Shown: positions 1 through 41,513, numbered from the stretch's first letter. The stretch is DNA of 64,000 bases from Candidatus Parcubacteria bacterium (GCA_027450205.1 DAIDJL010000002.1:93758-157757); one strand, 5' to 3'. Translations and numbers: made by a program. Notes: a model not told the origin generated them from the sequence alone.

Positions 1-296
1 TCAAAGCGAGGCCTTGTTCTTTTTCAATATGCTCAATAACCTCAAAACAGATAATTGCATCAAATGAATTATCAGAAAAGGCAAGCTCGGCAAAATCAGA
101 TAAAAGATATTCATCGTGAATGCCTTTTTGCCTGCTCTCCTCCAAATATGGCTCGCAAGCATCGACGCCAACGGAATATATTTTCCGTATTTTTGTCAAT
201 ACAGAAGACCGGCCACATCCAAGATCAAGAACTTTCTTACATCCGCAAAGTTGGCGTTCAATATAACGATAATATATTTTTTTAAAAAAAGTCATT
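1..296 (-). CDS. Class I SAM-dependent methyltransferase (motif I VLDLGCG). The 3' end runs off the window. An ATG overlaps the stop of the upstream epimerase (ATGA), but the methyltransferase frame is offset by one base after a T6A7 homopolymer, so the start is either frameshifted or an alternative TTG.
   Basis: Hand translation of the minus strand gives ...KKVLDLGCGRSSVLTKIRKIYSVGVDACEPYLEESRQKGIHDEYLLSDFAELAFSDNSFDAIICFEVIEHIEKEQGLAL. The ATG at 296-294 is in the -1 frame and hits a stop after 19 codons. Confidence 0.5.
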
Positions 297-1257
297 TTTC
301 TTTTTTGGTCAGAATAAGGCCCCAAGAGACAAGTGTTCTTCTAAGCCCTTCTTCAAAATCAATCTTCGGCTTCCAGCCAAGTTCTTTCTTTGCTTTCGCA
401 ACGTCAAGACAATATTTGTTTAGCTCTCCAGGGAGCTCGTGTCGCTGTACAATTCTTTTCTTCTTTCCTAGAAGCTTTGCGAGTGTCGCATAAAGATCAA
501 TAAGACCCTCCCTGCGGCCGGTTCCAACATTAAATATTGGATTTTTGTGCGATGCCGGAATTGTAATTGCACGCAAACTGATATCGACAACATCATCAAT
601 ATAGACGTAATCTCTCGTTTTTTTTCCATAAAATTCGGTCGGAGCTTCAGCATTTAAATCGCGGATATAAGCTGCCATTGCGCCCATAATTTGGCGGGGG
701 CCATAGACTGCAGCTGGACGCAAAATTACAAAGTCAATGCCGAAATTTCTTTTATAAAAATGAAGATATCCCTCAATGGTATATTTGGTTATCCCATAAG
801 GAGAACAAGGGTCATGGGACTCCGTTTCTTTTGTTGGAAAATGTACGGTATTGCCATAAATAAAACCTGAGGAAAAAAATATTATTTTTTTTATGCCATA
901 TTTCTTTGCTGCCTGGAGTATGTTAATCGAACCACGAAGATCGTCTATATTAATCAATGGATCCTTTACGGATCTTGGAACGCTTGAGTGATAGGCAAGG
1001 TGATAAATATAAGCGTCTTTATACCTCCGCATGAGTAGGTCGAGCTGCTTTCCATCCGCGATATTTATTTTATAAAAGCGCGCTTTTGGGTTTATATTTT
1101 CCTTACGACCCGTGGAAAGATCATCCACAATAATTACCTTCCCGCCCCTCGCAATAAGCGCATCCGCAATATGCGATCCAATGAAGCCGGCGCCGCCGGT
1201 TATAAGAAAAGTCTTTCCCCTGAGAGAGCGCGGTAATGTTATTCCAAATTTTAACAT
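292..1257 (-). CDS. NAD-dependent epimerase/dehydratase (extended SDR; UDP-sugar 4-epimerase-like)
   Basis: TGGAGFIGSH Rossmann motif, YGITK catalytic YxxxK, 321 aa. Confidence 0.85.
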   Translation of the reverse strand: MLKFGITLPRSLRGKTFLITGGAGFIGSHIADALIARGGKVIIVDDLSTGRKENINPKARFYKINIADGKQLDLLMRRYKDAYIYHLAYHSSVPRSVKDPLINIDDLRGSINILQAAKKYGIKKIIFFSSGFIYGNTVHFPTKETESHDPCSPYGITKYTIEGYLHFYKRNFGIDFVILRPAAVYGPRQIMGAMAAYIRDLNAEAPTEFYGKKTRDYVYIDDVVDISLRAITIPASHKNPIFNVGTGRREGLIDLYATLAKLLGKKKRIVQRHELPGELNKYCLDVAKAKKELGWKPKIDFEEGLRRTLVSWGLILTKKEK

Positions 1258-1367
1258 ATGGTAAATTGTACTTCTATTTAAAATATTTGAAAAGTAGTAT
1301 CAAAAGCTTAATAATATGCACCTTCCCAAATCACCACAAATCATCATTTTAGGATTATAATTGAACC

Positions 1368-2246
1368 ATGCCCAAGCCCGTTATCGCCGCTGTTATCGTT
1401 ACATGGAATCCCCTCCAATCGGATATCCTCGAATGTATAAAAAAACTCTTAAGCCAAGTCGATATTGTTATTTATAGCGACAATGGATCGAATACCGAAA
1501 CCAAAAAGCTCATCGTGGAGTTGGAAGCTGAACATAAAAAGATATCCTGCATCTGGAACGGCATTAATCTCGGGATTGCCACAGCACTTAACAATGGGGT
1601 TTCCTATGCAAAAAAAATGGGAGCAAATTGGATATTGACGCTCGACCACGATAGCGTGCCCGAAGATGGGATGATTTTCAAGATGCTTGACGCCTACGAG
1701 CGTCTTGGACAGGAAGAGAAAAATGCGACCGCAATCGTATGTCCCAATTTCATGCTTGCGAAAGGCATCGCGTACCCGGACTCCGCTCCCCGTCTTATCG
1801 AAACAAGTATCACTTCTGGCCAGTTGGTGAAAATGGATTTATTCGAAAAAATCGGCGGGTATGAAGATAAGCTCTTTATAGAATGCGTCGATCATGAATT
1901 TTGTTTCCATGCGCGCAAGGAAGGATATAAGATACTTCTCGTCCCGAACGCGATAATAAAACAAAGGATTGGAAATCCATCCGTAAAAAAAATATTCGGG
2001 AGGACGTTTACCGTCCCCCACTATAGCCCAGAGCGATATTATTATCAGCTTCGCAATACTATTTTCATTTATAAAAAATATCTCAAGACTGAATTGCCGT
2101 GGATCATAAAAAATATCCGCTCAACCATTTACTCATTAGGGAAGGTAGTATTTTATGAAAATGCCCCATTTAAAAAAATAAAATTTGCCGCATGGGGCAT
2201 TTTTGACGGGATGCGAGGAAAATTCGGGGAATTCAAAAATAGATAG
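1368..2246 (+). CDS. Family 2 glycosyltransferase (rhamnosyltransferase-like)
   Basis: VIVTWN N-terminus and DHD/DxD region typical of GT2; 292 aa. Confidence 0.8.
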   Translation: MPKPVIAAVIVTWNPLQSDILECIKKLLSQVDIVIYSDNGSNTETKKLIVELEAEHKKISCIWNGINLGIATALNNGVSYAKKMGANWILTLDHDSVPEDGMIFKMLDAYERLGQEEKNATAIVCPNFMLAKGIAYPDSAPRLIETSITSGQLVKMDLFEKIGGYEDKLFIECVDHEFCFHARKEGYKILLVPNAIIKQRIGNPSVKKIFGRTFTVPHYSPERYYYQLRNTIFIYKKYLKTELPWIIKNIRSTIYSLGKVVFYENAPFKKIKFAAWGIFDGMRGKFGEFKNR

Positions 2247-2345
2247 AAAAACATTATTGCCGCAAAAATTAATATTTGGTATGCTGAGCAATGTATTCAG
2301 TAATAAAATATCCATGAAAAAATCCTATTTAAGGAGGTCGCTGAC

Positions 2346-3081
2346 GATGATAAAAGAAAATGGATTGGTCGCGTTCCTAAAAAAAGCATGGAGGGCCTTA
2401 CTTTCGCGATATGACTCATTAGGCCTCATACTTTATCCCCTGGCATATTTTAAAATTCCAAAAGCTGCACAAAAGATCAGCACTGCAACTTCTGCGGTAA
2501 ATTTTTCTTTTGATAAAATAGGCGGTATTATAGAACCAACACAGATAAGATGGGAGCTATCCTCGCTCGCCCAGATCGTTGAATCACTTCATCCACGTAT
2601 AATATTGGAGGTTGGTACTGCAAGAGGGGGAACCCTCTTCACATTCTCACGCCTAGCGAAAGATGATGCAATAATTATCAGCATCGATCTTCCCGGCGGA
2701 AATTTTGGCGGGGGATATCCGCAATGGAAGGAATCTCTTTATAAAAAATTTGCGGCTGGTTCACAAAAAATCTTCCTTCTCCGAGCCGATTCTCATAGCG
2801 ATCAGACGGTTAAAAAAATACGGGACATCCTCAGCGGACGGAAAATTGATTTTCTATTTATCGACGGTGATCATACCTATGAAGGTGTAGCGAAAGACTT
2901 TACTAGTTATTCTTCGTTTGTACGAGAAGGAGGAATTATCGCATTTCATGATATCCGATCCCCCGAACCGACATATGGAGTGCCTCGTTTATGGAGCGAA
3001 CTAAAACAACGTCATAGCTACAAAGAGTTTTTGATACCCGGAGGCGTAAATATGGGTATAGGCGTTCTGTTTATGAAATAA
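2346..3081 (+). CDS. SAM-dependent sugar O-methyltransferase (CmcI / Methyltransf_24-like)
   Basis: LEVGTARGGT and FIDGDHTYEG motifs. AAGGAGG lies 8 nt upstream of the ATG at 2346. The ORF track extends it to 2185, overlapping the previous gene. Confidence 0.7.
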
Positions 3082-3106
3082 GTCGAAACGAAGCACCCCC
3101 CCGCTC

Positions 3107-3928
3107 TTATTTTTCTAATAGTTTTTCCGCCCAGCGTTTCTGCTCGATTAAGGACGCCGCTTCGGATCCTCCTCCAACGAAATGGGCGAATTTTCCGCAC
3201 ATATAAATTCCAACAAAAGGCGCGATTTCAAAAGTCGGGACGCGCGGATGTCCATATATTTCGGAGAATCGCAAAGCAAAATCTTGGGATCGATTGATCT
3301 TTATCCTCCCCCCGGTATCAAGCCCCCATGCTGGCAAAAAATTTGGTTTTCTTTTTTCGAGTGGCGCAAAATTGAAACATGCGAATCCCGCCCACCAGGC
3401 AAAATAGGGCTGCCAAAATCGATGAAAGGATCGATGGTATGATATGACGCCCCACGAATCGTAAAGGTTAAGATATGTGTTAATGGAGAGATCTTCGACC
3501 AACATTAAATCGGCATCCATGAATACAAATGCTCTTGGTTTGAATTTTTTAATAATATTCTCATAGATCCAGTTGAGTGCGAATCCATGTGATTGACTGC
3601 CATCCATGCCCGGATTCTTAGGGAGCCGCACATAGGATATCCCGTTCTCGATACAATACGTCATTATTTCTTTCGCCCGATCTTCCTTATTTGAATTATC
3701 GGCAACGAAATATTTATAAGTATCCCGCAAGTGCTTTCTAAGAAATCGATTCTGAAGATTGATAAGCTCGACGTCATTAAAAGCAATCACAAAAATAAAA
3801 AGTTGCGTGGTATCAGTAGGGGTAATGGATTCAAAAACGGCGGGTTGGTGTATATAACGCTTATTTGAAAAAGACGCTAAAAATAACTTAAAAAAAAATT
3901 TATAAAACTTTTTAAAAAAATCTTGCAT
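3107..3928 (-). CDS. Putative glycosyltransferase (nucleotide-diphospho-sugar transferase fold)
   Basis: 273 aa, FVADNSN and DAD acidic motifs, sits inside the glycan cluster. Confidence 0.55.
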   Translation of the reverse strand: MQDFFKKFYKFFFKLFLASFSNKRYIHQPAVFESITPTDTTQLFIFVIAFNDVELINLQNRFLRKHLRDTYKYFVADNSNKEDRAKEIMTYCIENGISYVRLPKNPGMDGSQSHGFALNWIYENIIKKFKPRAFVFMDADLMLVEDLSINTYLNLYDSWGVISYHRSFHRFWQPYFAWWAGFACFNFAPLEKRKPNFLPAWGLDTGGRIKINRSQDFALRFSEIYGHPRVPTFEIAPFVGIYMCGKFAHFVGGGSEAASLIEQKRWAEKLLEK

Positions 3929-3969
3929 GATTTTTACCGTCTTGTTTTATTGAATCTAAAATGGTTTAT

Positions 3970-4683
3970 CTATTTCGTCCGCCCCGAAGCCCATGTTGCA
4001 CTTTTATAAAGGGATTCAAACGTACCGGCGTCAGACCAAAAACCATTGAGAATGCCGTAATGAAGATTGCCCTCTTCTAGATAAAAATTTTGGACATCGG
4101 TTATCTCTAGCTCATTTCTCAATGAAGGCTTTAGTGTTTTTATTTTTGAAAATACGTCGGAATCGTAAAGATAAAAACCAACTATCGCCAGATCTGACTT
4201 TGGCTCTTTTGGTTTCTCGATGACGTTCATAATTTTCCCATTCTTTATTTCCGCAACCCCAAAGCGCTTAGGGTCAGCGACGCTTTTTAGAAAAACCATA
4301 GCACCATTAAGAGTTTCGAACTTTCTTATATCCTCCAAAAAATTGTTCTCAAAAATATTATCACCTAAGATCACCGCGACCTTCTCATTACCTATAAAAT
4401 CCTCCGCAAGGCCAAGCGCCGCCGCGATACCGCCGGAATCATTTTGTAAGGCATAAGATAACTTTACGCCGTACTCCCTCCCCGAACCAAGAAAATTCAT
4501 AAAGTGGCCGCCGTGCTCCTTTCCACAGACAACCATAATATCCGTAACTCCAGATCGCTCCAGAGTCTCGATTGGATACAAAATCATCGGTTTGTCATAA
4601 ACCGGCAAAAGATGCTTATTGGTGATGAGCGTGAGCGGTACCAAGCGCGTGCCCATTCCCCCAGCCAAAATTACACCTTTCAT
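3970..4683 (-). CDS. Sugar-1-phosphate nucleotidyltransferase (glucose-1-phosphate thymidylyl/cytidylyltransferase-like)
   Basis: N-terminal GGMGTRL signature, 237 aa. Confidence 0.8.
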   Translation of the reverse strand: MKGVILAGGMGTRLVPLTLITNKHLLPVYDKPMILYPIETLERSGVTDIMVVCGKEHGGHFMNFLGSGREYGVKLSYALQNDSGGIAAALGLAEDFIGNEKVAVILGDNIFENNFLEDIRKFETLNGAMVFLKSVADPKRFGVAEIKNGKIMNVIEKPKEPKSDLAIVGFYLYDSDVFSKIKTLKPSLRNELEITDVQNFYLEEGNLHYGILNGFWSDAGTFESLYKSATWASGRTK

Positions 4684-4817
4684 AATAATTATAACTATAT
4701 ATCATTTCCTGAAAAAAAACAGAAGACGTATTCGTCATACCATAGCCCATATTGCAGATAGATCCTATGCGCGCCGGCGGGCAGAATTGCAAGGGTAATT
4801 TGTTGAAAAGACCTCTC

Positions 4818-5567
4818 CTACAACCGCATTGCATTTACAATATGATTTTCAGTATCATACGACACGCAATATCCGTTCCTCGCAAGAAAATCCATAAAAT
4901 GCGTTAAACCGAACTTACTATATTTAGCATGCCATTCAATTGCCATCGCCTCGATTTTCCTTAAGATGCCGGGCGGGTAGTTCAAAAGAGTCGCCTCTTC
5001 AGATCCTTCGCAATCCATTTTTATAAAATCGCATCGTTGGATTTTTTCAAGTGCTTTACCGAGCGAAATCGAAGGGAAATCCATGACCTCGCTACCAGCT
5101 GATGCATGGATGCTTGCTTCCTTATTCGTAGGATATATATACATTTTTACCGCCCCATCTTGGGCTCCTACGGCAACCGGGAATACATCGATGTCGCAAA
5201 GATTCATTTCCGCATTTTTCTTTATCGCCTCAACGTTACTTAACACCGGCTCAAATGCCAATACGCGAACATTCTTTGCCGCCTTTGAAGCTTTAATAGA
5301 AAATATGCCAATATTTGCGCCAATATCAAGAACAATAAAATTATCTTTGATTGGAAAAGTATCATAAGGGGCATCCATCCATATCTCCCTAATCATAGCT
5401 GCATCGCCGACCGGCTTTGGGAGGAGATAGCATATTCCATTGCGCAGATGAATAAATACATCTTTTTGCCTGAATGGGTGGAGACGAGCCCATAAATAAG
5501 CAATCGGATTGGAAATTTCTGCAGCGACCCACCGTATTTCCGCCAGCCTTCTTTTTATTTTTTTCAT
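4818..5567 (-). CDS. FkbM family methyltransferase
   Basis: VLDIGANIG ... KMDCEGSE motifs. The start was chosen at MKKIKRR (ATG at 5567) because it avoids overlapping the upstream gene. Confidence 0.75.
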   Translation of the reverse strand: MKKIKRRLAEIRWVAAEISNPIAYLWARLHPFRQKDVFIHLRNGICYLLPKPVGDAAMIREIWMDAPYDTFPIKDNFIVLDIGANIGIFSIKASKAAKNVRVLAFEPVLSNVEAIKKNAEMNLCDIDVFPVAVGAQDGAVKMYIYPTNKEASIHASAGSEVMDFPSISLGKALEKIQRCDFIKMDCEGSEEATLLNYPPGILRKIEAMAIEWHAKYSKFGLTHFMDFLARNGYCVSYDTENHIVNAMRL

Positions 5568-5595
5568 ATTTATAAGATTATGATTTAAAAAAATA

Positions 5596-6486
5596 TCATA
5601 CCGTTTCCCATCCTCGCGTAAGAGCCATTCCTTGTGCCTGTCCCGCAAGCCACTCCTTCGGCGCGATTACGATCTTCTCCGGATTCCGGTTCAGCCATGC
5701 CCCCCACCAGGAAAATGTACTGTTCGCGATGATATTGTGCTTGCATAACGACATAAGCTGGAGATGGTGGCTTGCCTTGGGTCCCTGGGAATTACGTTCC
5801 ACATATTCCACGGGAAACGCAGGCTTGATATTTTCTTTGCACCATGCAATGTCATCTGAAAAGATATAAAATGTAGGATTGTCCACTGTTGCCGCAATAG
5901 TATCGATGGCCCGACGGTAATAGTCGAGATTCGTCTCCCCATACATCTTTTGATATTTTGGGGCGACATAATCCGTTCGACGCACATGGAGCGAAACCGA
6001 GTTTTTCCTCTTGATATCTTCCGCGATCTGCACGGCGGCGCCGTCAAGCGGGTGGACAAAACGGAACGCCTCGCGCAATTCATCCTCGATGCCATCGAAA
6101 TATTTGGGCGACTGCCAAAATCCCCAGAGAAAAATTTCCTTCTTGCCGCTCACCACTTCCGGATCAAATGTGAACCCTTTTTTTTCCTTAAAAAATTTTC
6201 GTATGCCAAAGCCGCTCTTTATCGCCGCCACGGCAAGATCGATGCCAAGCCATATCCCGGGGATTGGAAAAGACGCGGATAGTTTTGAGAGCGAGGTCAA
6301 CGGCGCCACCACGTTAAAAATATCGAGGTCATACGTCCTCGGACTGAATGCCGGACGCGGGAAACGATCGTTCAAATAGACCGTATCAAGGACGAGCGGT
6401 ACGCCCCCTGCGCGCGCGGCCGCACGTCCCGCCGCATACTGAAACATCTGGTTCCCCAATCCTCCCCGTAAGGCGGCAATTACCAT
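5596..6486 (-). CDS. Alpha-1,2-fucosyltransferase (GT11 family)
   Basis: N-terminal GGLGNQMFQYA hallmark, 296 aa. Confidence 0.8.
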   Translation of the reverse strand: MVIAALRGGLGNQMFQYAAGRAAARAGGVPLVLDTVYLNDRFPRPAFSPRTYDLDIFNVVAPLTSLSKLSASFPIPGIWLGIDLAVAAIKSGFGIRKFFKEKKGFTFDPEVVSGKKEIFLWGFWQSPKYFDGIEDELREAFRFVHPLDGAAVQIAEDIKRKNSVSLHVRRTDYVAPKYQKMYGETNLDYYRRAIDTIAATVDNPTFYIFSDDIAWCKENIKPAFPVEYVERNSQGPKASHHLQLMSLCKHNIIANSTFSWWGAWLNRNPEKIVIAPKEWLAGQAQGMALTRGWETV

Positions 6487-6492
6487 TATTTT

Positions 6493-8419
<1,927 letters not shown>

Positions 8420-8450
8420 CGGATGTATCCTTCTCCTTCCCGTAGGAGTC

Positions 8451-9113
8451 CTACTTCTTCGTCGACGAAGCCGCTGCCGGAGTACTGGATGCCATTACCT
8501 TAAAGAGCGCCATCGCCTGCGCGATGCGCGTGTCGGTAGGCCAATTCTTAAGAATGGTCGTCCCGACCTCGAGCGTGCCGCTCACGTTATTCTCGGCGCG
8601 GTAGACGTCAAAGAGGCCGTAGAGCGATTGCGGACGGTTAGGACCGAGCGCCACGCCTTCCTGGTACCATTTCTGCGCTGCAATGAGGTACGTCGGATCA
8701 CCGGTCGTGGCGAATGCGATCTCGTTGATGGCGCCCTCCAAATAGAGATCCTGGCCAAAGCTCATGCCCTTGCCGGCGTTCAGGATCGGATCGTAATAGC
8801 TGTTAAGGTAGCCGATGAGCGCCGCAGTGGAGCTGGCATTGCCGCCCTGCTGGACGAACGAGAGCACGCTGTTCGCCATATTGCGCACCAGCTCTTCCTG
8901 GCCGATGGGCGACGGGGCGTCAAGCGGCACCGAAAGCTTGTTCTCAAGGTCCTGCAGCGAAGTTGCCTGGCCGCCCGGCGTCTGGAGCCCCTGCAGGGTG
9001 GCGATGAACATCTGCGCTTTCCGCATCGGCAGATATGAGCCGTAATACGCGATGCCCAAAATTGCCGCTACGATGATGACTGCCGCTACTCTTTGGTATG
9101 TTCGGTCTTCCAT
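8451..9113 (-). CDS. Hypothetical membrane-anchored exported protein
   Basis: Start taken at [25 protein letters not shown] (single N-terminal TM helix). The ORF track start at 9236 would overlap the upstream gene. Confidence 0.45.
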
Positions 9114-9120
9114 GGATGTG

Positions 9121-10758
9121 TTATTGCGCGTGCGCTGATTTTTTATGGACCGAGAAATAGTACGCCGCAAATGCGAGGAACAGGAAGAGGACGATATACA
9201 TCGGGAAGACGTCAAAGATGGCGATCCCCTGCACAAGATACGCGATCGGCAGGGCCACGATCAACCCTTTCTTTAACTCGGACGTTTCGTGCTTATGCGC
9301 ACCCTTGAAGAACTCCCAATAGAACATAAAGAAGACGGCAAGGTAGGCAAGAAGCCCAAGGACGCCGGTCTCCGTCAGGTAGTCAAAGTACACGCTGTGC
9401 GCGCGATCGAACCACGTCTCCGCGTTCTGGCCCGGCACGTAGAAGTTCGGATTGAAGAACTTGTCAAAGACCGGCGTAAAATTCTCCGGACCCCAGCCGA
9501 GTATCGGCCGCTCCAGGAATCCCTGCCATGCCTCGCCCCACACCCAGAAACGGGTCTGAGCGGTTGAATCCGTAGCGCTGATCCGCAACAACCTGGATTC
9601 CGGAAGATTCTGGATGCTTGACGCATAGTGGAAGGAGATGATGCCAGCTCCCACCACAATAACCCCAACAACCCCCAATATGATCCTGAAAATTTTGCGT
9701 GCGAGGGCGTTCTTTGAGAATGCCAGGCAGATAAGGAATACAAGAATGCCAAGGTTCGTTCCGACGACGATCGCTGAAACAAGACTGCCCGCAGTGCTAT
9801 GTCCGAGCATGGCTTTCTCCACTATGAAAGTTATGGCGAGAATAGCAAGAAATATTGATGCGGAAACCTTGCGCATGCGCGCGCCTTCCTGAAAGACCAG
9901 ATAGCCAAGCAGGACGAACATTCCGCCATCCAGCCCCAAAAATGCGCCGCGCGTCTGGCCGAGAATAAAGAAAAAGAAGAGAATTGCGATAAGAACGCCG
10001 TAGCCCCACGACTTGAGCTTCGTGAGCGTTCCCGCAAGCTTGCTTGAAAGCCAGAGGTACGCCGCAAAGAACATGGAGAAGATAAGGTACGGATCAACGT
10101 ATGCCGGATTGCCGAGCGACCCTTCAAAGCGCCCGTCAACAAGCTGGTGCCACCATCCTGCCGGCGGGGTGCTTCCCGCATACGGGCCGATAAAGCCCGC
10201 GACGCCGAAGTTCCCAAAGAGGCCGTAGATGATCATGATCCCCGCTGAAACGAGCGAGAACCGGAAGATATTCTTCCAATCCTTTTCGTCAACGAAGATG
10301 AGCACAAGGAGCAGGAAGAACAGATAGTAATGCAGCATCTGGAAACCGCCTTCGCCACGCTCGAAGTTTGACCAGAACGCCGCCTGGAAATCGTAGGCGA
10401 AAACGCTCGCGAGCTCGAAGATGGCCACGAAAACGCTGACGGCGATGACAAGGGGCTTATGGAAAAGCGCGATGATGCGGGCCTTCGCCTGACCCTTCTT
10501 TGCCTCAAACGCCCACCAGAGCACCATGCACGCAAGCGCCAATTCTACGACGAACCTGAAGAAAAAATCCTTCCCGCCGATGAAGGGGAAGAATATGGAA
10601 TTCATCACGATGATCACCGAGAATACGGCAATATAGAGATACCATTTTGCGATGCGCTCAAACGAAAACTTCATCAGTTTGGCAACGATGCCAAGGAGCA
10701 GGAGTCCCGCGATGACGGAAGCGGTGACGGGGTGGCTGAAAATAGTGTCGTTTATCAT
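9121..10758 (-). CDS. O-antigen ligase / Wzy_C family polytopic membrane protein
   Basis: More than 10 predicted TM helices; LGQTRGAFLGL and H...DYL periplasmic-loop motifs. Confidence 0.7.
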   Translation of the reverse strand: MINDTIFSHPVTASVIAGLLLLGIVAKLMKFSFERIAKWYLYIAVFSVIIVMNSIFFPFIGGKDFFFRFVVELALACMVLWWAFEAKKGQAKARIIALFHKPLVIAVSVFVAIFELASVFAYDFQAAFWSNFERGEGGFQMLHYYLFFLLLVLIFVDEKDWKNIFRFSLVSAGIMIIYGLFGNFGVAGFIGPYAGSTPPAGWWHQLVDGRFEGSLGNPAYVDPYLIFSMFFAAYLWLSSKLAGTLTKLKSWGYGVLIAILFFFFILGQTRGAFLGLDGGMFVLLGYLVFQEGARMRKVSASIFLAILAITFIVEKAMLGHSTAGSLVSAIVVGTNLGILVFLICLAFSKNALARKIFRIILGVVGVIVVGAGIISFHYASSIQNLPESRLLRISATDSTAQTRFWVWGEAWQGFLERPILGWGPENFTPVFDKFFNPNFYVPGQNAETWFDRAHSVYFDYLTETGVLGLLAYLAVFFMFYWEFFKGAHKHETSELKKGLIVALPIAYLVQGIAIFDVFPMYIVLFLFLAFAAYYFSVHKKSAHAQ

Positions 10759-10820
10759 GTCAGATTATTGTAGCATACTCGTTCTTTTTTTGACCAGCAC
10801 CGCCGGACCGCCGGATCCCG

Positions 10821-12317
10821 CTAGCGCGCGTATTCCACGGCCCGCATCTCGCGGATCACATTTACCTTGATCTCGCCCGGATATTTGAGCTCCGTCTGTA
10901 TCTTGTTTGCGATCTCGCGCGCGAGCTCCAAAGCGCGGAAGTCGTCCACTTTTTCGGGGATCACGAAGACGCGCAATTCGCGGCCCGCGGCGATCGCGTA
11001 CGCGCTCTTTACGCCGGCGAAATCGCCCGCGATCTTCTCCAGGTCGGCAAGGCGCTTTACATAATTCTCCAGCGTACCGCGGCGGGCGCCGGGGCGCGCG
11101 GCCGACAGCACGTCTGCGGCGGTGACCACATACGCCTCGGGCCGCGCATACGGATAATCGTCGTGATGCGATTGCATCGCCTCCACGACGCGCTCGTCAA
11201 TGTTATATTTGCGCAGCAGCTTCATGCCGAGCTCCACGTGCGTGCCTTCCACTTCATGGTCGATCGCCTTGCCGATGTCGTGGAGCAGGGCTCCCTTCTT
11301 TGCCACTTCGGCGTTCAAGCCAAGCTCTCGCGCCATCATTTCGGCGATGTATGCCATTTCCGTCGAGTGGACGAGCACGTTCTGACCGTAGCTCGTGCGG
11401 AAGTGCAACCGCCCGATCATCTGTAAAAGCTCCTTCGGGAGGTCGAATATGCCGAGATCCTGCGCTGCGGCATCGCCGATCTCCTGCGTACGCTTGGCCA
11501 GGTCCGCTTTTGCCGTCTCCACGCTCTCCTCTATTTTTGCCGGCTGGATGCGGCCGTCCTTTACGAGCCGCTCCAGCGCAAGCCTTGCCACTTCGCGGCG
11601 GAACGGATCGAATGACGAAATGATGATCGCGTCCGGCGCCTCGTCTATGATGAATTCCACGCCGGTGGCGCGCTCAAGCGCGCGGATGTTGCGCCCCTCG
11701 CGGCCGATGATCTTCCCCTTCAGCTCTTCGTCGCCAAGCTGGAAAAGCGTCGTCGTCATCTCCGCCACGTGCGAGCGCGCGTAACGCTGGAGCGCTATCG
11801 TAATGATGTCATTGGCGCGCTTTTCCACCTCTTCGCGGTTTTCGCGGTCGATCTTTTGTATTGATTGCGCCAGGTCCTGCGAGCGGTCCTCTTTTGCGCG
11901 GCGCAAGATCTCTTCTTTCGCTTCCATCACAGAAAGTCCGCCGATCTTCTCCAGGCGCGACTCTATTTCTCCCTCTTTTTTGATGACCGCCTCTTCCTTT
12001 GCTCTCGCGCTTTCCTCTCTCGTGCGGAGCTTGCCCTCTTCCGCGGAAAGGTCCGCCAGCTTCTTATCCAGCGTCTCCTCGCGGTGCAAAACCCGCGCTT
12101 CAAGCGCATCGATCTCCTTGCGGCGGTCCTTTTCTTCGTTCTTTAGCTCCACCAAAAGCGAGGCAGCCTTCTCTTTTGCCTCTAAAACGATCTCTTTTGC
12201 TTTTGTCTCCGCCTCCGCAAGTTTATTTGCCCCCGAATATCTGCGCGCGAGATATCCCGCGACTCCTCCCACCGCCAAAAACACCACCGCGCTGAGCGCC
12301 ACGTATGTTATTTCCAT
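10821..12317 (-). CDS. rny: Ribonuclease Y
   Basis: N-terminal TM helix, coiled coil, KH domain (GREGRNIRALE) and HD domain (HSTEMAYIA...HDIGK). Confidence 0.9.
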   Translation of the reverse strand: MEITYVALSAVVFLAVGGVAGYLARRYSGANKLAEAETKAKEIVLEAKEKAASLLVELKNEEKDRRKEIDALEARVLHREETLDKKLADLSAEEGKLRTREESARAKEEAVIKKEGEIESRLEKIGGLSVMEAKEEILRRAKEDRSQDLAQSIQKIDRENREEVEKRANDIITIALQRYARSHVAEMTTTLFQLGDEELKGKIIGREGRNIRALERATGVEFIIDEAPDAIIISSFDPFRREVARLALERLVKDGRIQPAKIEESVETAKADLAKRTQEIGDAAAQDLGIFDLPKELLQMIGRLHFRTSYGQNVLVHSTEMAYIAEMMARELGLNAEVAKKGALLHDIGKAIDHEVEGTHVELGMKLLRKYNIDERVVEAMQSHHDDYPYARPEAYVVTAADVLSAARPGARRGTLENYVKRLADLEKIAGDFAGVKSAYAIAAGRELRVFVIPEKVDDFRALELAREIANKIQTELKYPGEIKVNVIREMRAVEYAR

Positions 12318-12408
12318 GATAATAATTGGTTCCCGAAAGTTTCATGATTTTAAGGACTTTTTGATTGCCTTTATGATAGCCCAAAATGAGGCCTGCGGTC
12401 AAGGAACT

Positions 12409-12436
12409 TTGACAGACCCTTTTGAATTGTTATTAT
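12409..12436 (+). promoter_or_regulatory. Sigma70-like promoter TTGACA-16-TATTAT driving a short transcript
   Basis: TTGACA at 12409-12414 and TATTAT at 12431-12436. Downstream are AAGGATG, a 10-codon ORF and a GNRA-looped hairpin plus T-run near 12489-12507. Confidence 0.35.
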
Positions 12437-12568
12437 AGTTAAGGATGTCAGTCCAGATCATTCAGCATTATGTTTGAATCTGCAAAGAGCCCGGCAACGG
12501 GTTTTTTGTTTTGTGGGAGAGATCCCACGCTGGGCGGACGATGTTCGAAGGATTTTTATGGCTTAATC

Positions 12569-12603
12569 AAAAAAACAAGAGCCCGCCAGGTTTCCCTGGC
12601 GGG
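12569..12603 (-). terminator. Rho-independent terminator for the 12624..12983 minus-strand ORF
   Basis: 9-bp stem cccgccagg/cctggcggg with loop tttc, followed on the minus strand by tcttgtttttt. Confidence 0.55.
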
Positions 12604-12623
12604 GTGAGGCAACCTTTTGAATA

Positions 12624-12983
12624 TTAATCATTCGCAGGCTGCGTGTTTAAGGGTTCGACCTCGCTTTTGGCCTTCTTGTTCTGTTTCCAAAAGAAACCTG
12701 GTCGTATCACTGAGAAACCATCTCTCAGCAATATTGCCCATATTGCGAAAAGAAACACTCCAACCGTTCTCACGGCGTCGTGAAATTCGGGTGTCCGAAT
12801 CGGATGCACCCAACTGAATTCCACAGCGCCATACCACAAGAGTGGCGTGAAAACGTTTAATGCTAAAGCGATGAAGAAAACCCAGACTCGGATTTTCTGT
12901 AGGCGTTGATGTTGTTCCGCCCGCAGCCTACTCCGCTCCAGGCGTTCTTGTTGTCGAGTCAAAGTACTGCCTCCTTTGCCCAT
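12624..12983 (-). CDS. Hypothetical small membrane protein
   Basis: 119-aa ORF with hydrophobic core and a dedicated terminator downstream; no recognisable family. Confidence 0.4.
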   Translation of the reverse strand: MGKGGSTLTRQQERLERSRLRAEQHQRLQKIRVWVFFIALALNVFTPLLWYGAVEFSWVHPIRTPEFHDAVRTVGVFLFAIWAILLRDGFSVIRPGFFWKQNKKAKSEVEPLNTQPAND

Positions 12984-13181
12984 TGCAGGCGCGAATCGCT
13001 TTTAACCTGAACAACAGGCGTATTGATTATACTTAATTTTTTAAAAAAATCAAAATAGTTCTGCGGGGTATCGGACCAAATTCGAACCTATTTTCGGCAG
13101 TTTTCTAATGATTTTGCTGTCTAATATGGAACATGCTATAACCTAGGTAGTAATTATCTCAGCGAAAAAGGAGGGCTACCA

Positions 13182-13748
13182 ATGCCCAGCTTGAAAGTTT
13201 GGAGACTGATCGGAAATGGATTCGTGGGAGTCCTGATCCTGGCGATAGGGAGCTTTGGGTTCTATGTGCTCCCCGCTTCGACAATGCATCACATCATGCC
13301 GTATGCAGGCAGCATGAAAGTCGCCATGAAGGCGCTGTTCTATGCCCCGATTTTCATCCCCACAATCGTCGTGCTCGGCACTCTGGGGTGTTACTATCGC
13401 TTTGAGCGAAGATTCCAAGACGTGTTTCTTTCACTCTTTTTCTTGATGTTCATCACTTCCTTTGTTGCGGTCTTTTTCTATGAAGGAGCGCAGCAGGATT
13501 TTTTGGACAATCATATCGTCTACCAAGGGAATTGCCGGTCGTTTGGCGTCGCAGTCCAAGTAAATGGCAACAGCAGGGATCTTTACGCCAACTTCGCCTG
13601 CGACAACAATCCGGGTTATGTTTTCAGGATATGGGATCCGGATGTCATCGCCTATGTAGCGAATCATCCAGGAGCTCAACCGCTCGCGTATCGACTTTCG
13701 GCGGGGTATACTCTTTCGCCGATTAACACAGTTGCTGAAGTAAAGTAG
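13182..13748 (+). CDS. Hypothetical membrane protein
   Basis: AAGGAGG SD 9 nt upstream, 3-4 predicted TM helices, terminator at 13774-13807. Confidence 0.5.
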   Translation: MPSLKVWRLIGNGFVGVLILAIGSFGFYVLPASTMHHIMPYAGSMKVAMKALFYAPIFIPTIVVLGTLGCYYRFERRFQDVFLSLFFLMFITSFVAVFFYEGAQQDFLDNHIVYQGNCRSFGVAVQVNGNSRDLYANFACDNNPGYVFRIWDPDVIAYVANHPGAQPLAYRLSAGYTLSPINTVAEVK

Positions 13749-13773
13749 TCAACAATCTGAAGAAGTCATTAGG

Positions 13774-13807
13774 GGCGATCCTCATTAAAGATGGATCGCC
13801 TTTTTCT
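13774..13807 (+). terminator. Rho-independent terminator
   Basis: Stem ggcgatcc/ggatcgcc followed by tttttct. Confidence 0.55.
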
Positions 13808-13920
13808 TTGTGTATTATTCAGCAAACGTGCTTAATCCGTTAAACGGATTTAGTGCTCCAGGCAGGACTCGAGCCCACAATCCAATTCTTTTCCGTTTGC
13901 TATTTTTGATACACATCGCG

Positions 13921-14054
13921 GGATTGGCACAGGCGCTGCCTTATGTGTTTTTGAGGGGCTTCGGAGCCGCCAAAGGGCGGCGAGACGGAGCGCGCGGCCA
14001 GCAGGCCGCGACGCGTACCCGAGAAAACGCATAAGGCAGCGCCTGTGCTAATCC
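13921..14054. repeat. 25-bp inverted repeat (one mismatch) flanking an 84-nt GC-rich spacer, 25 nt upstream of the gpmI start
   Basis: Left arm ggattggcacaggcgctgccttatg at 13921-13945; right arm cataaggcagcgcctgtgctaatcc at 14030-14054; the spacer holds further GC hairpins. Confidence 0.7.
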
Positions 14055-14078
14055 CCTCGTTTCATCTAAAATAGAGGA

Positions 14079-15614
14079 ATGGCAAAGAAAACCATGGTGC
14101 TCATCGTGCTCGATGGATGGGGTATTGGAAGGGACGACTTTACGAATCCGCTCTGGGTGGCAAAGCCTCCCACGTTCGAGTGGCTTGCGCAAAATTACCC
14201 CGTCACAAGCCTGCAGGCATCCGGCATCGCCGTCGGGCTTCCGTGGGGCGAGGTCGGCAACAGCGAAGTGGGACACCTTACGCTCGGCGCGGGGAAGGTC
14301 GTCTATCAGTATTACCCGAAGATCACGATGGCCATCCAGGACGGCAGCTTCTTTGAGAACGCGGTGCTCAAGGCCGCCTGCGCGCACGCGCGTGAGAACG
14401 GCGGCGCGATCAACTTTGCGGGACTGCTCACGAAGGCGAACGTGCACGCGTCGCTCGAGCACCTGCAGGCGCTCATCAAAATGGCGCAGCAGGAAGGCGT
14501 GACGAAGATAAACCTGCACCTCTTCGGCGATGGAGAGGACAGCCCGCCGCGGTCGATCGAAAAATTCCTCGGTGAACTGCCGGGGGAATATCTCGCGAGC
14601 CTCGTCGGCCGCTATTATGCGATGGACCGCAACCAGAACTGGCGGCTTACGCAGACCGCGTACGACGCGATGGTCGGCACCGCGGGCGCGGTCGTGGAAG
14701 ATCCCATGGCGGCGGTCGAAAAAATATTCACACAGGGCACCACCGAAGAATATCTTCCTGCGCTCCGATTTTCGGACGATAAAAAACTGCAGGACGGGGA
14801 CGCGCTCGTGTTCTTCAATTACCGCGAGGACAGCATCCGCCAGCTCGCATCCGCGTTCATCACGAAAGGATTCGATCATTTTCCGATCGTGCCGTTGCAC
14901 AACGTGTATATCGCGACGTTCACCCATTACGACGACGCGCTCGACGCGCCGGTCGCGTTCCCCGCAGATAATGTCACGGACCCGATCGGGAAGGTGCTAA
15001 GCGACGCCGGCGCGACCCAGCTGCGGCTTGCCGAAACGTACAAATACGCGCACGTCACCTATTTCTTCAACGGCCTCCGCGAACCGCCGTACAAAGGGGA
15101 GTACCGGACCCTCGTGCCGTCAAATACGAATCCCCATCCCGAAGAGCATCCCGAGATGATGGCGGCCGCGGTCACCGACCGCCTTATCGAATCCATCCAG
15201 AGCCGCGGATTTGATTTTATTCTCGTGAACTACGCGAACCCCGACACGATCGCGCATACCGCCAACTTCAACGCCGCGCTCGAGGCCATAAAAGTGATCG
15301 ATGCGCAGATCTCGCGCATCGTAAAGGCCGCTGACAACCCCGACACGCTCCTCTTCATCACCTCCGACCACGGGAACATAGAAGTGATGCTTGATAAGGT
15401 CACGGGCGAACCCGAAAGCTCGCACGATGCCAGCCCCGTGCCGTTCTATCTCGTCGGCCAGCAGTTCCGCGGACGCAAATTTGTGAACGGCGACCGGCTG
15501 GCGCTTGAGACGCTTGGCTCCCTCGCCGACGTTGCGCCGACGATCCTTGCCATAATGGGGATCCCCAAGCCGCCGGACATGAGCGGAAACAGCCTGTTGG
15601 ACGGGCTGATCTAA
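14079..15614 (+). CDS. gpmI: 2,3-bisphosphoglycerate-independent phosphoglycerate mutase
   Basis: 511 aa, VLIVLDGWG ... SDHGN metal-binding motifs. Confidence 0.9.
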   Translation: MAKKTMVLIVLDGWGIGRDDFTNPLWVAKPPTFEWLAQNYPVTSLQASGIAVGLPWGEVGNSEVGHLTLGAGKVVYQYYPKITMAIQDGSFFENAVLKAACAHARENGGAINFAGLLTKANVHASLEHLQALIKMAQQEGVTKINLHLFGDGEDSPPRSIEKFLGELPGEYLASLVGRYYAMDRNQNWRLTQTAYDAMVGTAGAVVEDPMAAVEKIFTQGTTEEYLPALRFSDDKKLQDGDALVFFNYREDSIRQLASAFITKGFDHFPIVPLHNVYIATFTHYDDALDAPVAFPADNVTDPIGKVLSDAGATQLRLAETYKYAHVTYFFNGLREPPYKGEYRTLVPSNTNPHPEEHPEMMAAAVTDRLIESIQSRGFDFILVNYANPDTIAHTANFNAALEAIKVIDAQISRIVKAADNPDTLLFITSDHGNIEVMLDKVTGEPESSHDASPVPFYLVGQQFRGRKFVNGDRLALETLGSLADVAPTILAIMGIPKPPDMSGNSLLDGLI

Positions 15615-17908: not shown

Positions 17909-18664
17909 ATGGAAAATTATTATTCTTCCGTCGCCCCGATCATCGAAGAGGCAGGCGTTGAACTAAGAAAAGGGTTTGGACAGGCCGATGCCGTAGCTTT
18001 CAAATCCACCCACCATGGTTCTGCGGTCACTGAATTCGATCGAAATATAGAACGGCTCATCGCTCAGCGGCTGGGCAAGATCTATCCCGATATAAGATTC
18101 TTCGGCGAAGAGTTCGGAGGAGATGATAAAGCGGAACGGTTTTGGCTTGTTGACCCCATCGACGGCACTTCGAATTTTATCCGAGGCCTTCCATTTTCAA
18201 CCACGATGATAGCTCTCATCCAGGAAGGATGTCCCGTCTTTTCAATCATTTACAATTTTATGACAAAAGAAATGTATTCTGCCGCGAAGGGAGCGGGGGC
18301 GACGTTGAATGGTAATGCTATCCATGTAAGCAATCGCCCGCTCGACCACTCTTACGTCTTTGTAGAAACCAATAAGCATAAAAAGGAGAATCTTGAAAAA
18401 TATCTCCACATTAATCAAAAATTCAGTATCTACGCCACCAAAAATAGCGGATTTGAATATTGCATGGTGGCAAGCGGAAAGATAGAAGGGCGTATAACGT
18501 TCGGCGATCCTCCCGGCAAGGATTGGGATTATGCTCCCGGCGCCCTGTTAGTCGCCGAAGCCGGCGGCATAGTTAAAAATCTCGGTAGCAATACATATGA
18601 TTATCGGAACCACGAGTTCATAGCGGCGAATGAGGAAGTCTATGGAGAATTGAGCAGTCTGTAA
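17909..18664 (+). CDS. Inositol monophosphatase family protein
   Basis: WLVDPIDGTSNF motif, 251 aa. Confidence 0.8.
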   Translation: MENYYSSVAPIIEEAGVELRKGFGQADAVAFKSTHHGSAVTEFDRNIERLIAQRLGKIYPDIRFFGEEFGGDDKAERFWLVDPIDGTSNFIRGLPFSTTMIALIQEGCPVFSIIYNFMTKEMYSAAKGAGATLNGNAIHVSNRPLDHSYVFVETNKHKKENLEKYLHINQKFSIYATKNSGFEYCMVASGKIEGRITFGDPPGKDWDYAPGALLVAEAGGIVKNLGSNTYDYRNHEFIAANEEVYGELSSL

Positions 18665-18686
18665 TAAAAATATTTAAAGATTTTAT

Positions 18687-18845
18687 CCCTCCCCCATGGC
18701 ACACTATTGAAAAGCAGTTCGCGGAGGCGATGCCGGCTTGGTCGTTCATTCTGATGAACGCAGCATCGCCGAGCGCACAGGCGGACGCGCGCCGCAGGAG
18801 CGCGCGGACCGCCGGTGCTTTTCAATAGTGTGCCATGGGGGAGGG
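18687..18845. repeat. Perfect 29-bp inverted repeat flanking a 101-nt GC-rich spacer, between the IMPase gene and tRNA-Leu
   Basis: ccctcccccatggcacactattgaaaagc at 18687-18715 and its exact reverse complement at 18817-18845. Confidence 0.8.
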
Positions 18846-18914
18846 AGAGGATTGACTTTTGCGATATTCCCATGATATGCTTTAATCACTAAGACCGATC
18901 CTCCTTTTGAAGGT

Positions 18915-19451
<537 letters not shown>

Positions 19452-33069: not shown

Positions 33070-33081
33070 TGTTTTATTGCT

Positions 33082-39614: not shown

Positions 39615-39635
39615 AGTTTTCCATTAAGCTCAACC
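39615..39635. repeat. Copy 1 (partial) of the AGTTTTCCATTCCGCTCAAC intergenic repeat family
   Basis: agttttccattaagctcaacc; on the minus strand it lies about 40 nt upstream of the M49 peptidase start. Confidence 0.5.
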
Positions 39636-40696: not shown

Positions 40697-40769
40697 ATTG
40701 TTTACAACTTTATCCTATATCTAAAAACAAAAGTTGTAAACTAGTTGTATACAAGGGCAATAGATGGGG

Positions 40770-40793
40770 AGTTTTCCATTCCGCCCAACTCCC
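40770..40793. repeat. Copy 2 of the intergenic repeat family
   Basis: agttttccattccgcccaactccc. Confidence 0.55.
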
Positions 40794-40911
40794 AGATACC
40801 ACGGAATGACGCTGGAAGATTTATTAAGGGATTATATAAACTTTGCTATATTTAAAAACTATGTTATAATTGCCTCGTTCTCAACCGATCTTTGTAATGA
40901 GAGGAGTCAAG

Positions 40912-41433: not shown

Positions 41434-41513
41434 GTGCTGCAGGGATTCGGACTCTCCGCCAAGTAGCGAAATGCGAACGGCGGTTTTTTTATTTTGCGGC
41501 GGACGAACAAATA

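Follow-up and report, generated by a model that had tools for sequence, protein, structure and literature searches.

The first 10,758 nucleotides of the DNA analysed here probably represent what is visible of a flexible surface-glycan island of the replacement type, the distal part of which was imported from a lower-GC relative by recombination. The window, by which the whole analysed stretch of 64,000 nucleotides is meant, stems from the genome of a Paceibacteria-type Patescibacterium. Common to the clade is an anchor of rny, a Wzy_C gene and a TPR-like gene, with exchangeable glycan-synthesis genes downstream of it. The sequence-only reading had described a composite locus for a methylated deoxyhexose glycan, with an AT-rich half acquired horizontally and grafted onto a resident fucose module. 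This interpretation is partly supported.

Gene content of the locus

The gene calls of the sequence-only reading were all retained after Pfam and NCBIfam searches; a conserved gene at 8451–9113 has to be added. The features are as follows.

2–289, minus strand: 5' part of a class-I SAM methyltransferase (Pfam Methyltransf_11/25), continuing beyond the window start
292–1257, minus strand: SDR-family nucleotide-sugar epimerase/reductase (Pfam Epimerase, 3.4e-51; GC3 0.36)
1368–2246, plus strand: GT2 glycosyltransferase (Pfam PF00535; GC3 0.47)
2185–3081, plus strand: CmcI/rhamnosyl-O-methyltransferase-family methyltransferase (Pfam PF13578, Methyltransf_24, and PF04989; GC3 0.36)
3106–3086: terminator-like hairpin 3' of the GT-A gene
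3107–3928, minus strand: predicted divergent GT-A fold glycosyltransferase of a rare family (motifs and predicted fold)
3970–4683, minus strand: short RmlA-like sugar-1-phosphate nucleotidylyltransferase, 237 aa (Pfam NTP_transferase, 5e-56; GC3 0.45)
4818–5567, minus strand: FkbM-family methyltransferase, 249 aa, ATG at 5567 (TIGR01444, 88.8 bits, cut-off 37.7; GC3 0.41)
5568–5595, no strand: compositional seam, a 28-nt AT-rich spacer from the GT11 stop (5596) to the FkbM start (5567)
5596–6486, minus strand: GT11-family (alpha-1,2-fucosyltransferase family) glycosyltransferase (Pfam PF01531, 120.6 bits, cut-off 23.9; GC3 0.58)
6493–7437, minus strand: GDP-L-fucose synthase-like protein, fcl (best full-length match NF047922, 292 bits, below the equivalog cut-off of 500; GC3 0.65)
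7421–8419, minus strand: GDP-mannose 4,6-dehydratase, gmd (TIGR01472, 533 bits, cut-off 415; GC3 0.65)
8451–9113, minus strand: conserved small membrane-anchored TPR-like protein, 220 aa, final gene of the fixed anchor (GC3 0.73)
9121–10758, minus strand: Wzy_C-domain polytopic membrane protein (Pfam PF04932, 59.6 bits, cut-off 31.7; GC3 0.71)
10821–12317, minus strand: RNase Y, rny (Pfam RNase_Y_N, KH, HD; GC3 0.74)

RNase Y is the housekeeping flank and was used as synteny anchor; it lies outside the glycan pathway and is 91–95% identical in the closest relatives. The Wzy_C gene stands beside rny in nearly all relatives, and its product is 66–88% identical irrespective of the cassette that follows. 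The domain score places this protein in the Wzy_C superfamily (O-antigen ligase, polymerase or O-oligosaccharyltransferase); searches for a PglL-specific Pfam domain and for a PDB sequence match gave none. The TPR-like protein has 589 homologues and is 82–98% identical in close relatives. A PDB profile search with it returned TPR proteins exclusively (best E = 2e-8), 9 of 23 family members match Pfam TPR models, and the predicted structure is a helical repeat of low confidence. In nearly all of about 100 related loci, compared on one flank, rny-Wzy_C-TPR precedes the variable genes.

Within the fucose module, gmd is 89% identical to its counterpart in the relative L004, and fcl, whose place beside gmd is conserved among relatives, is 86% identical to those of L004 and L005. 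The GT11 protein is 70% identical to that of L004 and 50–58% to those of other relatives. It belongs to the GT11 family and carries the conserved C-terminal motif NSTFSWWGAWL; its donor and linkage specificity are putative.

Among the genes of the AT-rich distal block, the truncated methyltransferase shares 58–63% identity with the methyltransferases that L081, L091 and L092 carry at this locus. The SDR protein (67% identical in L007, 46% in L081) falls under every NCBIfam equivalog cut-off. Its assignment as a 4,6-dehydratase was rejected, as the SSG...YxxxK motif is present and the TDE motif is absent. The GT2 protein, 67% identical to that of L081, resembles the rhamnosyltransferase-like subfamily (TIGR01556, 147 bits, under the cut-off of 200). 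For the CmcI-family gene, a start at the ATG at 2281 or 2314 is likely; its homologues have 250–258 aa and are without exception paired with a GT-A gene. In the window the two genes are convergent.

The product of 3107–3928, previously noted only as another glycosyltransferase, has no Pfam match. Its DNS and DxD motifs are invariant, the best non-self homologue is 59% identical, and nearly all of the top 50 PDB matches of its AlphaFold model (pLDDT 77.6) in Foldseek are GT-A glycosyltransferases, so that motifs and model together indicate a divergent GT-A fold enzyme. The RmlA-like protein reaches 238 bits with TIGR01207 (cut-off 360) and is 79% identical in L081 and 68–74% in L004, L002 and L010. 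The FkbM gene adjoins the seam, and its 249-aa product is on record in a protein collection; the one close homologue found, on a contig of 927 nt, is 77% identical, and the second best 39%. The distal-block genes are intact, and a dN/dS of about 0.05 for the RmlA-like and FkbM genes shows purifying selection.

The compositional seam

The change from AT-rich to GC-rich DNA at about 5600, formerly judged by eye, is borne out by calculation. The GC content is 40.5% for 1–5600, 54.1% for 5601–10758 and 53.3% for 10759–64000, and a two-segment likelihood scan of 1–12000 places the maximum-likelihood change point at base 5600 (2*dLL = 258). Codon usage differs in the same way: GC3 is 0.36–0.47 in six AT-rich genes compared to a backbone mean of 0.69 +/- 0.07 (33 genes; Mann-Whitney p = 6e-7), and GC1 and GC2 are likewise reduced. 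The GC-normalised tetranucleotide signature of 1–5595 correlates with backbone segments at r = 0.32, that of 5596–10820 at r = 0.58, and backbone segments among themselves at 0.55–0.62. The locus is thus composite, as had been proposed, with an AT-rich block beside a gmd-fcl-GT11 module of near-backbone composition. The step falls sharply between two genes, yet GC3 already declines gradually over gmd, fcl and GT11. Since the block continues past the window start, one of its edges is visible.

Variation among relatives

Variability was assessed with eight informative relatives, defined by an RNase Y identity of at least 91% or a nucleotide identity of 89%. All eight bear different cassettes downstream of the anchor: RmlBACD (L002), GT4/GT2 (L003), PseB-like plus DegT (L023), gmd-fcl-DUF268 (L005), gmd-fcl-GT11-RmlB-RmlA (L004), SDR-GT11-SDR (L007), SDR-GT11-gmd-C-methyltransferase (L082) and a ManC-GT2 fusion (L103). 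Past the anchor or fucose module, rhamnose, amino-sugar or fucose/methyl sets occur depending on the relative, usually at lower GC. The drop is largest in the present window, with 15 points. A Wzx-type flippase is found at the distal end of the L102 island, and none within the present window. The priming transferase and the second boundary of the island likewise fall beyond the window, which counts against the island reading. The L102 island also contains an IS200-type transposase.

The description of the fucose module as resident holds in part. Its composition is close to that of the backbone, and gmd-fcl, with or without GT11, follows the rny-Wzy_C-TPR anchor in many relatives, including some with an RNase Y identity of only about 65%. 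Not all relatives share it: at this locus gmd-fcl is absent from the close relatives L002, L003, L023 and L103, and the last, the nearest relative (89% nucleotide identity), diverges immediately after the TPR gene. The exchangeable unit accordingly begins near 8450, with 5600 as an internal seam, and the module is only semi-resident. DNA homology to L004 spans 12406 to 5659 and ends there. Towards the seam, dN relative to L004 climbs from 0.047 (rny) over 0.082 (gmd) and 0.106 (fcl) to 0.201 (GT11), figures to be read with saturated dS and constraint that differs between genes.

The AT-rich genes are missing or only remotely matched in the closest relatives. Their nearest homologues (RmlA-like 79%, GT2 67%, CmcI 62%, GT-A 59%) occupy the corresponding locus of other Paceibacteria and Liptonbacteria, where GT-A/CmcI pairs, SDR-methyltransferase pairs and GT11-FkbM-GT-A recur as sub-blocks in Paceibacteria. 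No homologue above 79% identity, no near-identical block and no close donor were found in any searched collection, and every glycan protein of this locus is a singleton 90% cluster. The RmlA-like gene is nearer to that of the distant L081 than to those of close relatives, an incongruence that is modest because all pairwise identities fall between 68 and 79%.

Origin of the distal block

The visible part shows the marks of a replacement island: a shared position, differing gene sets of equivalent function, lower GC at 40.5% against 54–55%, and no integrase, tRNA or att repeats. Exchange between lineages would most likely proceed by homologous recombination in the conserved genes rather than through a mobile element. 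The proximal gmd-fcl-GT11 genes are an old, widespread module of near-native composition, predicted to make and transfer GDP-L-fucose. The distal part, from FkbM to the class-I methyltransferase, is lineage-specific and was most likely imported, retaining the composition of a lower-GC relative. Horizontal acquisition of the AT-rich half is upheld as a proposal by its absence from or distance to the closest relatives and by the end of L004 homology at 5659; an exotic donor is not, as the matches point to Paceibacteria at the same locus. Also in favour of import, a true integrated element elsewhere in the window, with a serine recombinase at the tmRNA gene, covers a GC3 range like that of the AT-rich genes (p = 0.46). 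As no donor was found in the searched collections, with best identities of 59–79% and singleton clusters, direction and mechanism of the transfer are deduced and not traced. On the scale of the sampled diversity the transfer would not be recent.

Composition alone is no proof of recent transfer because lower island GC is systematic: in 31 of 40 relatives the island has less GC than the backbone, and in none does it exceed the backbone by more than 2 points. Such a systematic offset could reflect a locus-specific bias instead of donor composition. The distal genes would then be vertical or have evolved in place, their AT-richness arising from relaxed codon selection on variable, weakly expressed glycan genes or from AT-biased mutation. 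The gradual GC3 fall ahead of the step fits such a bias, as does the same long-standing and unexplained trend in O-antigen clusters (PMC3715488). Against a locus bias speak the abruptness of the step and its position between two genes, the reduced GC1 and GC2, and the distinct GC-normalised tetranucleotide signature. Every close relative lacks the block, and homologous modules occur at or near backbone GC in L097, L102 and L091; those of L097 and L102 indicate that low GC is not intrinsically needed by these genes. We therefore regard an origin of the AT-richness in the locus itself as unlikely.

The source is a metagenome-assembled, 314-kb contig with a single visible junction, and two Paceibacteria populations might have been joined at about 5600 via the conserved 3' end of GT11. 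About 100 nt at 5659–5760, encoding the conserved GT11 motif, share 76–81% identity among several relatives and might lead an assembler astray. At about 80% identity between species, however, they are too dissimilar for an assembler to collapse them. Furthermore, GT11, the 28-nt spacer and FkbM are all intact and tightly packed, the adjacencies GT11-FkbM-GT-A (L097, L098) and GT11-RmlB-RmlA (L004, L081) recur in independent assemblies, and the GC drop is found at the same place in many independent MAGs and complete chromosomes. A chimera of assembly or binning is hence very improbable.

Equally improbable is the integrase-mediated insertion of a mobile island with glycan-modification genes, for which a true serine-recombinase element at the tmRNA gene of the same window (39.6–50 kb), similar in GC, and the transposase of L102 could be cited, since neither the seam (no integrase, tRNA or flanking repeat) nor 1–13000 as a whole (no recombinase, transposase, tRNA, direct or inverted repeats) shows its traces, the block is tightly packed and co-oriented with the resident operon, related cassettes are confined to one locus, and the tetranucleotide signatures of element and block do not match (r = 0.28–0.31).

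Predicted glycan and role of the Wzy_C protein

Import by recombination, our preferred reading, leaves the product of the locus to be predicted from its gene families. A methylated, fucose-containing glycan is a reasonable prediction, with Gmd above and Fcl below the respective equivalog threshold. The rhamnose-type glycan suggested earlier finds no support: RmlB, RmlC and RmlD homologues, which with RmlA would make up the dTDP-L-rhamnose set, are absent from the 64 kb, and the SDR protein lacks the dehydratase motif; upstream genes are possible. Cytoplasmic glycosyltransferases and methyltransferases would build a lipid-linked, fucose-containing, O-methylated oligosaccharide, which a Wzx-type flippase would export. 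The Wzy_C protein and its TPR partner may then transfer the glycan to a conserved acceptor, possibly an S-layer or pilus protein as for WsaB/WsaA in Geobacillus. The Wzy_C protein could also be a polymerase.

Comparison with known systems

The phenomenon in general is not new; a familiar kind of island is found in an unusual lineage. In enterobacterial O-antigen (rfb) clusters, for instance the galactose-initiated set of Salmonella, mosaic segments have differing GC contents below that of the genome (PMC3715488). Similar to the present locus, nucleotide-sugar genes close to the conserved flank follow the species and are near-native in GC, and GC is lowest in the serotype-specific glycosyltransferase and modification genes deeper in the cluster; the gradient of GC and divergence over gmd-fcl-GT11 matches that of the rml genes there (PMC3715488). 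Exchange through recombination in the flanks is described for rfb (PMC3715488) and would apply here by analogy. The GC contrast of 15 points is similar as well, with sister lineages of the same class as the apparent donor pool in our case. In contrast to rfb, the host is a monoderm-type Patescibacterium of about 0.9 Mb without LPS, the flank is rny-Wzy_C-TPR instead of galF/gnd, and the Wzy_C-family gene is conserved and no part of the variable region, unlike wzy, which ranks with the most variable genes of rfb clusters.

Replacement or 'glycotype' islands known from Pelagibacter, Alteromonas, Vibrio and other aquatic bacteria (PMC4033161; PMC11898729) resemble the present one in a chromosomal position common to all relatives, in gene sets that differ between lineages but are functionally equivalent, in the absence of integrase and tRNA, and in a streamlined small-genome host. 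Raised divergence of bordering genes is described there, and here dN rises towards the seam, with saturated dS and unequal constraint. Those islands are defined within species (>95% ANI), whereas ours are compared across species, the closest relatives being about 80–89% identical in nucleotide sequence. No two genomes were found with identical cassettes, so recombination is deduced rather than observed directly.

In the slg clusters of Geobacillus stearothermophilus and Paenibacillus alvei (PMC2943079), the Wzy_C putative O-oligosaccharyltransferase WsaB adjoins the small TPR protein WsaA, as in the present arrangement, the likeness being one of description. Glycosyltransferases with an O-methyltransferase, which caps the glycan there, and a monoderm envelope are further common traits. 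A further likeness is the presence of rml genes, represented in our window only by the RmlA-like gene. Differences are the sugar (rhamnose there, predicted fucose here) and the export by a Wzm/Wzt ABC transporter, compared to the Wzx-type flippase of L102; no acceptor protein and, in the window, no S-layer gene was identified.

Conclusions

Patescibacteria have not been cultured, possess tiny genomes and presumably live in attachment to other cells, which makes surface chemistry, about which almost nothing is known, a key part of their biology. They keep a sizeable, fast-turnover glycan island that follows the evolutionary logic of O-antigen, capsule and S-layer glycan clusters, in a layout of a fixed, putative transfer/assembly enzyme pair with exchangeable sugar-synthesis cassettes. 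The rny-Wzy_C-TPR arrangement offers a defined genomic marker for cataloguing Patescibacteria 'glycotypes', and Wzy_C/TPR a concrete candidate enzyme pair. Tentatively, in these ultra-small and probably host-attached bacteria, this pair might be a glycan-promiscuous O-oligosaccharyltransferase that decorates an S-layer or pilus protein with the glycan of the adjacent cassette. If so, the island would be the main determinant of surface identity, for host recognition or phage evasion, in a genome of about 0.9 Mb, and its cassettes would circulate among Paceibacteria species that differ widely in GC.

Results and Discussion

The first 5600 bases of the window, which run off its start, have a GC content of 40.5%, compared with 54.1% for 5601-10758 and 53.3% for the remainder; the sliding profile was obtained as well. 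A two-segment likelihood scan of positions 1-12000 placed the change point at base 5600 (2*dLL = 258), within the AT-rich 28-nt spacer that separates the GT11 stop codon (5596) from the FkbM start ATG (5567). The contrast of an AT-rich and a GC-rich half with a seam near 5600, noted in the sequence-only reading, is thus confirmed. GC3 amounts to 0.36-0.47 for the six genes lying complete in the AT-rich block, where GC1 and GC2 are also reduced; it is 0.58 for GT11, 0.65 for both fcl and gmd and 0.71-0.74 for the three genes that follow, with a backbone mean of 0.69 +/- 0.07 (n = 33 genes; Mann-Whitney p = 6e-7). Tetranucleotide signatures normalised for GC give a correlation of only r = 0.32 between 1-5595 and backbone segments, compared to 0.58 for 5596-10820 and 0.55-0.62 for backbone segments among themselves. 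Composition declines mildly over gmd, fcl and GT11 and ends in a sharp step at 5600.

All gene families named from the sequence alone were recovered with Pfam and NCBIfam, and one further real gene, for a TPR-like protein, was added. The 10 products tested are all on record in the protein collection, including the 249-aa FkbM protein starting at 5567, and all derive from a single NCBI contig of 314,167 nt.

Genes of the glycan locus in the window
Window start, AT-rich block: partial class I methyltransferase
292-1257, AT-rich block: SDR epimerase; SSG...YxxxK present, TDE motif of 4,6-dehydratases absent
AT-rich block: GT2; CmcI/Methyltransf_24 methyltransferase; short RmlA-like nucleotidylyltransferase
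3107-3928, AT-rich block: GT-A protein
Start 5567, AT-rich block: FkbM methyltransferase, 249 aa
GC-rich side of the seam: GT11, fcl, gmd, Wzy_C protein
8451-9113, between gmd and Wzy_C: TPR-like protein

The GT-A protein, listed earlier as another glycosyltransferase, has no match by sequence in Pfam or PDB. The DNS and DxD motifs are invariant in its small family, and its predicted structure (pLDDT 77.6) matches almost exclusively GT-A glycosyltransferases.

For comparison, about 100 related loci were collected. Proteins from MAGs with a Paceibacterota or Minisyncoccia label share 91-95% identity with the RNase Y encoded by rny, and those of Liptonbacteria and other Parcubacteria 59-82%; the complete genomes among the relatives measure 0.83-0.90 Mb. 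The RNase Y 90% cluster has 22 members, none of them above 94.6% identity, and the closest DNA found, locus L103, shows 89% nucleotide identity over a length of only 3.5 kb. In nearly all loci rny, the Wzy_C gene and the TPR gene are contiguous. The gmd-fcl-fucosyltransferase half is shared by part of the relatives: gmd-fcl follows this anchor in many loci, including some with RNase Y identities as low as about 65%, GT11 comes after it mostly in closer relatives, and L002, L003, L023 and L103 lack gmd-fcl. Past gmd-fcl(-GT11), gene content differs in every relative.

Cassettes at homologous loci of related genomes
L002: RmlB-A-C-D; no gmd or fcl
L003: GT4 and GT2 genes
L004: gmd-fcl-GT11-RmlB-RmlA and a CmcI-like gene
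L005: gmd-fcl, then a DUF268 protein
L007: SDR-GT11-SDR
L023: PseB-like dehydratase and DegT aminotransferase
L082: SDR-GT11-gmd and a C-methyltransferase
L103, 2028-3482: ManC-like nucleotidyltransferase/GT2 fusion straight after the stop of the TPR gene, at the place of gmd in the window

Since L103 diverges at the stop of the TPR gene and the cassettes differ, the replaceable unit starts at about 8450 and encloses the 5600 seam. In the close relative L002, positions 13742-14564 hold only a truncated GT11 (178 aa) and a 94-nt remnant of the 3' end of this gene, a visible relic of cassette replacement. The homologous island of L102 spans about 20 kb, with Wzy_C at one end and a Wzx-type flippase at the other, and an IS200-type (Y1_Tnp) transposase (1175-1822) adjoins this flippase within the island. 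Neither a flippase nor a priming transferase was found elsewhere in the window, the remainder of which is housekeeping; half of the island is probably all that the window shows.

Another small variable spot lies on the opposite side of rny. The interval from rny to iPGM (12318-14078) is low in GC and carries two ORFs without a family match; in L082-L090 an FkbM methyltransferase is found there, and in other relatives different small low-GC ORFs.

The locus is best interpreted as a replacement-type flexible glycan island. Recombination would have brought in its distal, lineage-specific part from a donor of lower GC within the same bacterial class and attached it to a fucose module of greater age. 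The proposal that an AT-rich half was acquired horizontally and grafted at about 5600 onto a resident fucose module is thus partly supported: the imported distal block is retained, and the fucose module is not strictly resident. The same pattern is described for Salmonella O-antigen clusters, where GC likewise grades from the flank towards the interior (PMC3715488), and for replacement flexible genomic islands of aquatic bacteria (PMC4033161).

No close homologue of the AT-rich genes was found, and their nearest relatives occupy this locus in other Paceibacteria or Liptonbacteria genomes. Best identities are 79% for RmlA-like, 77% for FkbM (on a 927-nt contig without any other gene), 67% for GT2 and SDR, 62% for CmcI and 59% for GT-A, for which no closer homologue was found among 5.8 billion proteins. 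A profile scan of metagenome contigs returned only eight loci, all at no more than 49% identity, and exact 30-mers from the window had no match in the contigs scanned. Sub-blocks recur, namely a convergent GT-A/CmcI pair, an SDR-methyltransferase pair and GT11-FkbM-GT-A. Most of the AT-rich genes occur in L081, a Liptonbacteria genome with a uniform GC content of 45.6%. The RmlA-like gene is 79% identical to that of L081 compared to 68-74% for close relatives, and the backbone genes show the opposite order, an incongruence that is modest. The AT-rich genes are intact, and a dN/dS of about 0.05 indicates purifying selection.

DNA homology to L004 is unbroken between 12406 and 5659 and ends there; beyond this point only the RmlA-like gene still matches (71% nucleotide identity). 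That recombination broke within the GT11 3' end was considered and rejected: all GT11 homologues vary in their last ~20 residues, and the loss of homology at 5659 is therefore not diagnostic. Values of dN against L004 rise towards the seam, from 0.047 for rny to 0.082 for gmd, 0.106 for fcl and 0.201 for GT11, with dS saturated and the genes differing in constraint.

An AT bias intrinsic to the locus is less likely than import and is the strongest of three alternatives, given that relatives show the bias systematically: island GC lies below the backbone in 31 of 40 and is never more than 2 points above it. The drop of 15 points in the window is the largest in this comparison, and homologous modules occur at backbone GC in L097 and L102, showing that low GC is not inherent to the genes themselves. 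A chimeric assembly is also less likely, as the same adjacencies recur in independent assemblies. Insertion by an integrase, likewise less probable, finds no supporting feature in the visible sequence: no tRNA, recombinase or repeats were found at the seam, and repeat, tRNA, promoter and terminator scans gave no seam-specific feature.

Integration is suggested for another low-GC region of the window.

Features of the second low-GC island
39635-50287: whole island, GC 42-49%, GC3 0.37-0.52
47503-47639: LOOT RNA (RF03000, 85 bits)
48459-50042: large serine recombinase
49972-50287, minus strand: tmRNA gene (Rfam, 97.8 bits)

It also contains HTH regulators, an ATPase/STAS-like gene and a TIG-domain protein. 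The 3' end of the recombinase overlaps the tmRNA gene, and the region resembles an element that has inserted itself at ssrA. It shares the GC3 range of the AT-rich glycan block and differs from it in tetranucleotide signature. For the tmRNA, ARAGORN predicts an implausible-looking tag peptide of 29 aa, GGIGRSGFLGSIPVLYKGTSVRLTIIRLA; assignment of the tag or the resume codon may be wrong, or integration next door may have altered the gene. At 17909-18998, adjoining tRNA-Leu(cag), a low-GC inositol-monophosphatase-family gene (GC 0.46, GC3 0.49) is missing from this place in almost all relatives and thus represents a small lineage-specific insertion. The isoleucyl-tRNA synthetase (23674-27252, minus strand, 1192 aa) carries a His_Phos_1 (histidine-phosphatase) domain between its catalytic halves, an architecture shared by the enzyme of L082.

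Within the glycan locus, GDP-L-fucose would be made by gmd and fcl and transferred by GT11. Two further glycosyltransferases, the RmlA-like enzyme and the epimerase would add hexose-derived units, and the product would be O-methylated by three methyltransferase families (FkbM, CmcI and class I); family annotations describe methylation of sugars by relatives of FkbM and CmcI in other systems. Rhamnose, predicted earlier for this glycan, is unsupported by the visible DNA because the SDR lacks the TDE motif and no RmlB, RmlC or RmlD homologue was found within 64 kb. At 32269-33807 (minus strand), a TylF-type O-methyltransferase of native composition, followed by an unannotated 241-aa ORF, may provide a further sugar-modifying function outside the island.

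Wzy_C is 66-88% identical across lineages with cassettes for unrelated sugars. A glycan-tolerant ligase or O-oligosaccharyltransferase presumably fits this conservation better than a cassette-specific wzy. A sequence search of PDB with Wzy_C gave no match, and the PglL-specific domain was not detected. In O-antigen clusters, by contrast, wzy is cassette-specific (PMC3715488). The TPR-like protein (220 aa, N-terminal membrane helix) has 589 homologues and is 82-98% identical in close relatives. Its family profile matches only TPR proteins in PDB (best E = 2e-8), and Pfam TPR models are matched by 9 of 23 family members. The structure model, a helical repeat, is of low confidence (pLDDT 58) and its Foldseek matches, mostly TPR, are weak (E >= 0.03), so the assignment rests mainly on the profile searches. 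In the S-layer glycosylation cluster of Geobacillus, WsaB and WsaA form a pair comparable to Wzy_C and its constant small TPR partner; in WsfB and PglL the TPR motif belongs to the same chain (PMC2943079). By this analogy the pair is a candidate O-oligosaccharyltransferase system, a lead and not a demonstration.

Conclusion

A literature search, incomplete in coverage, returned no directly relevant glycan island from Patescibacteria, which is not proof of novelty. The low-GC mosaic surface-glycan island is of an ordinary kind, in an unusual and poorly known lineage, and its conserved anchor could be exploited for surveys.
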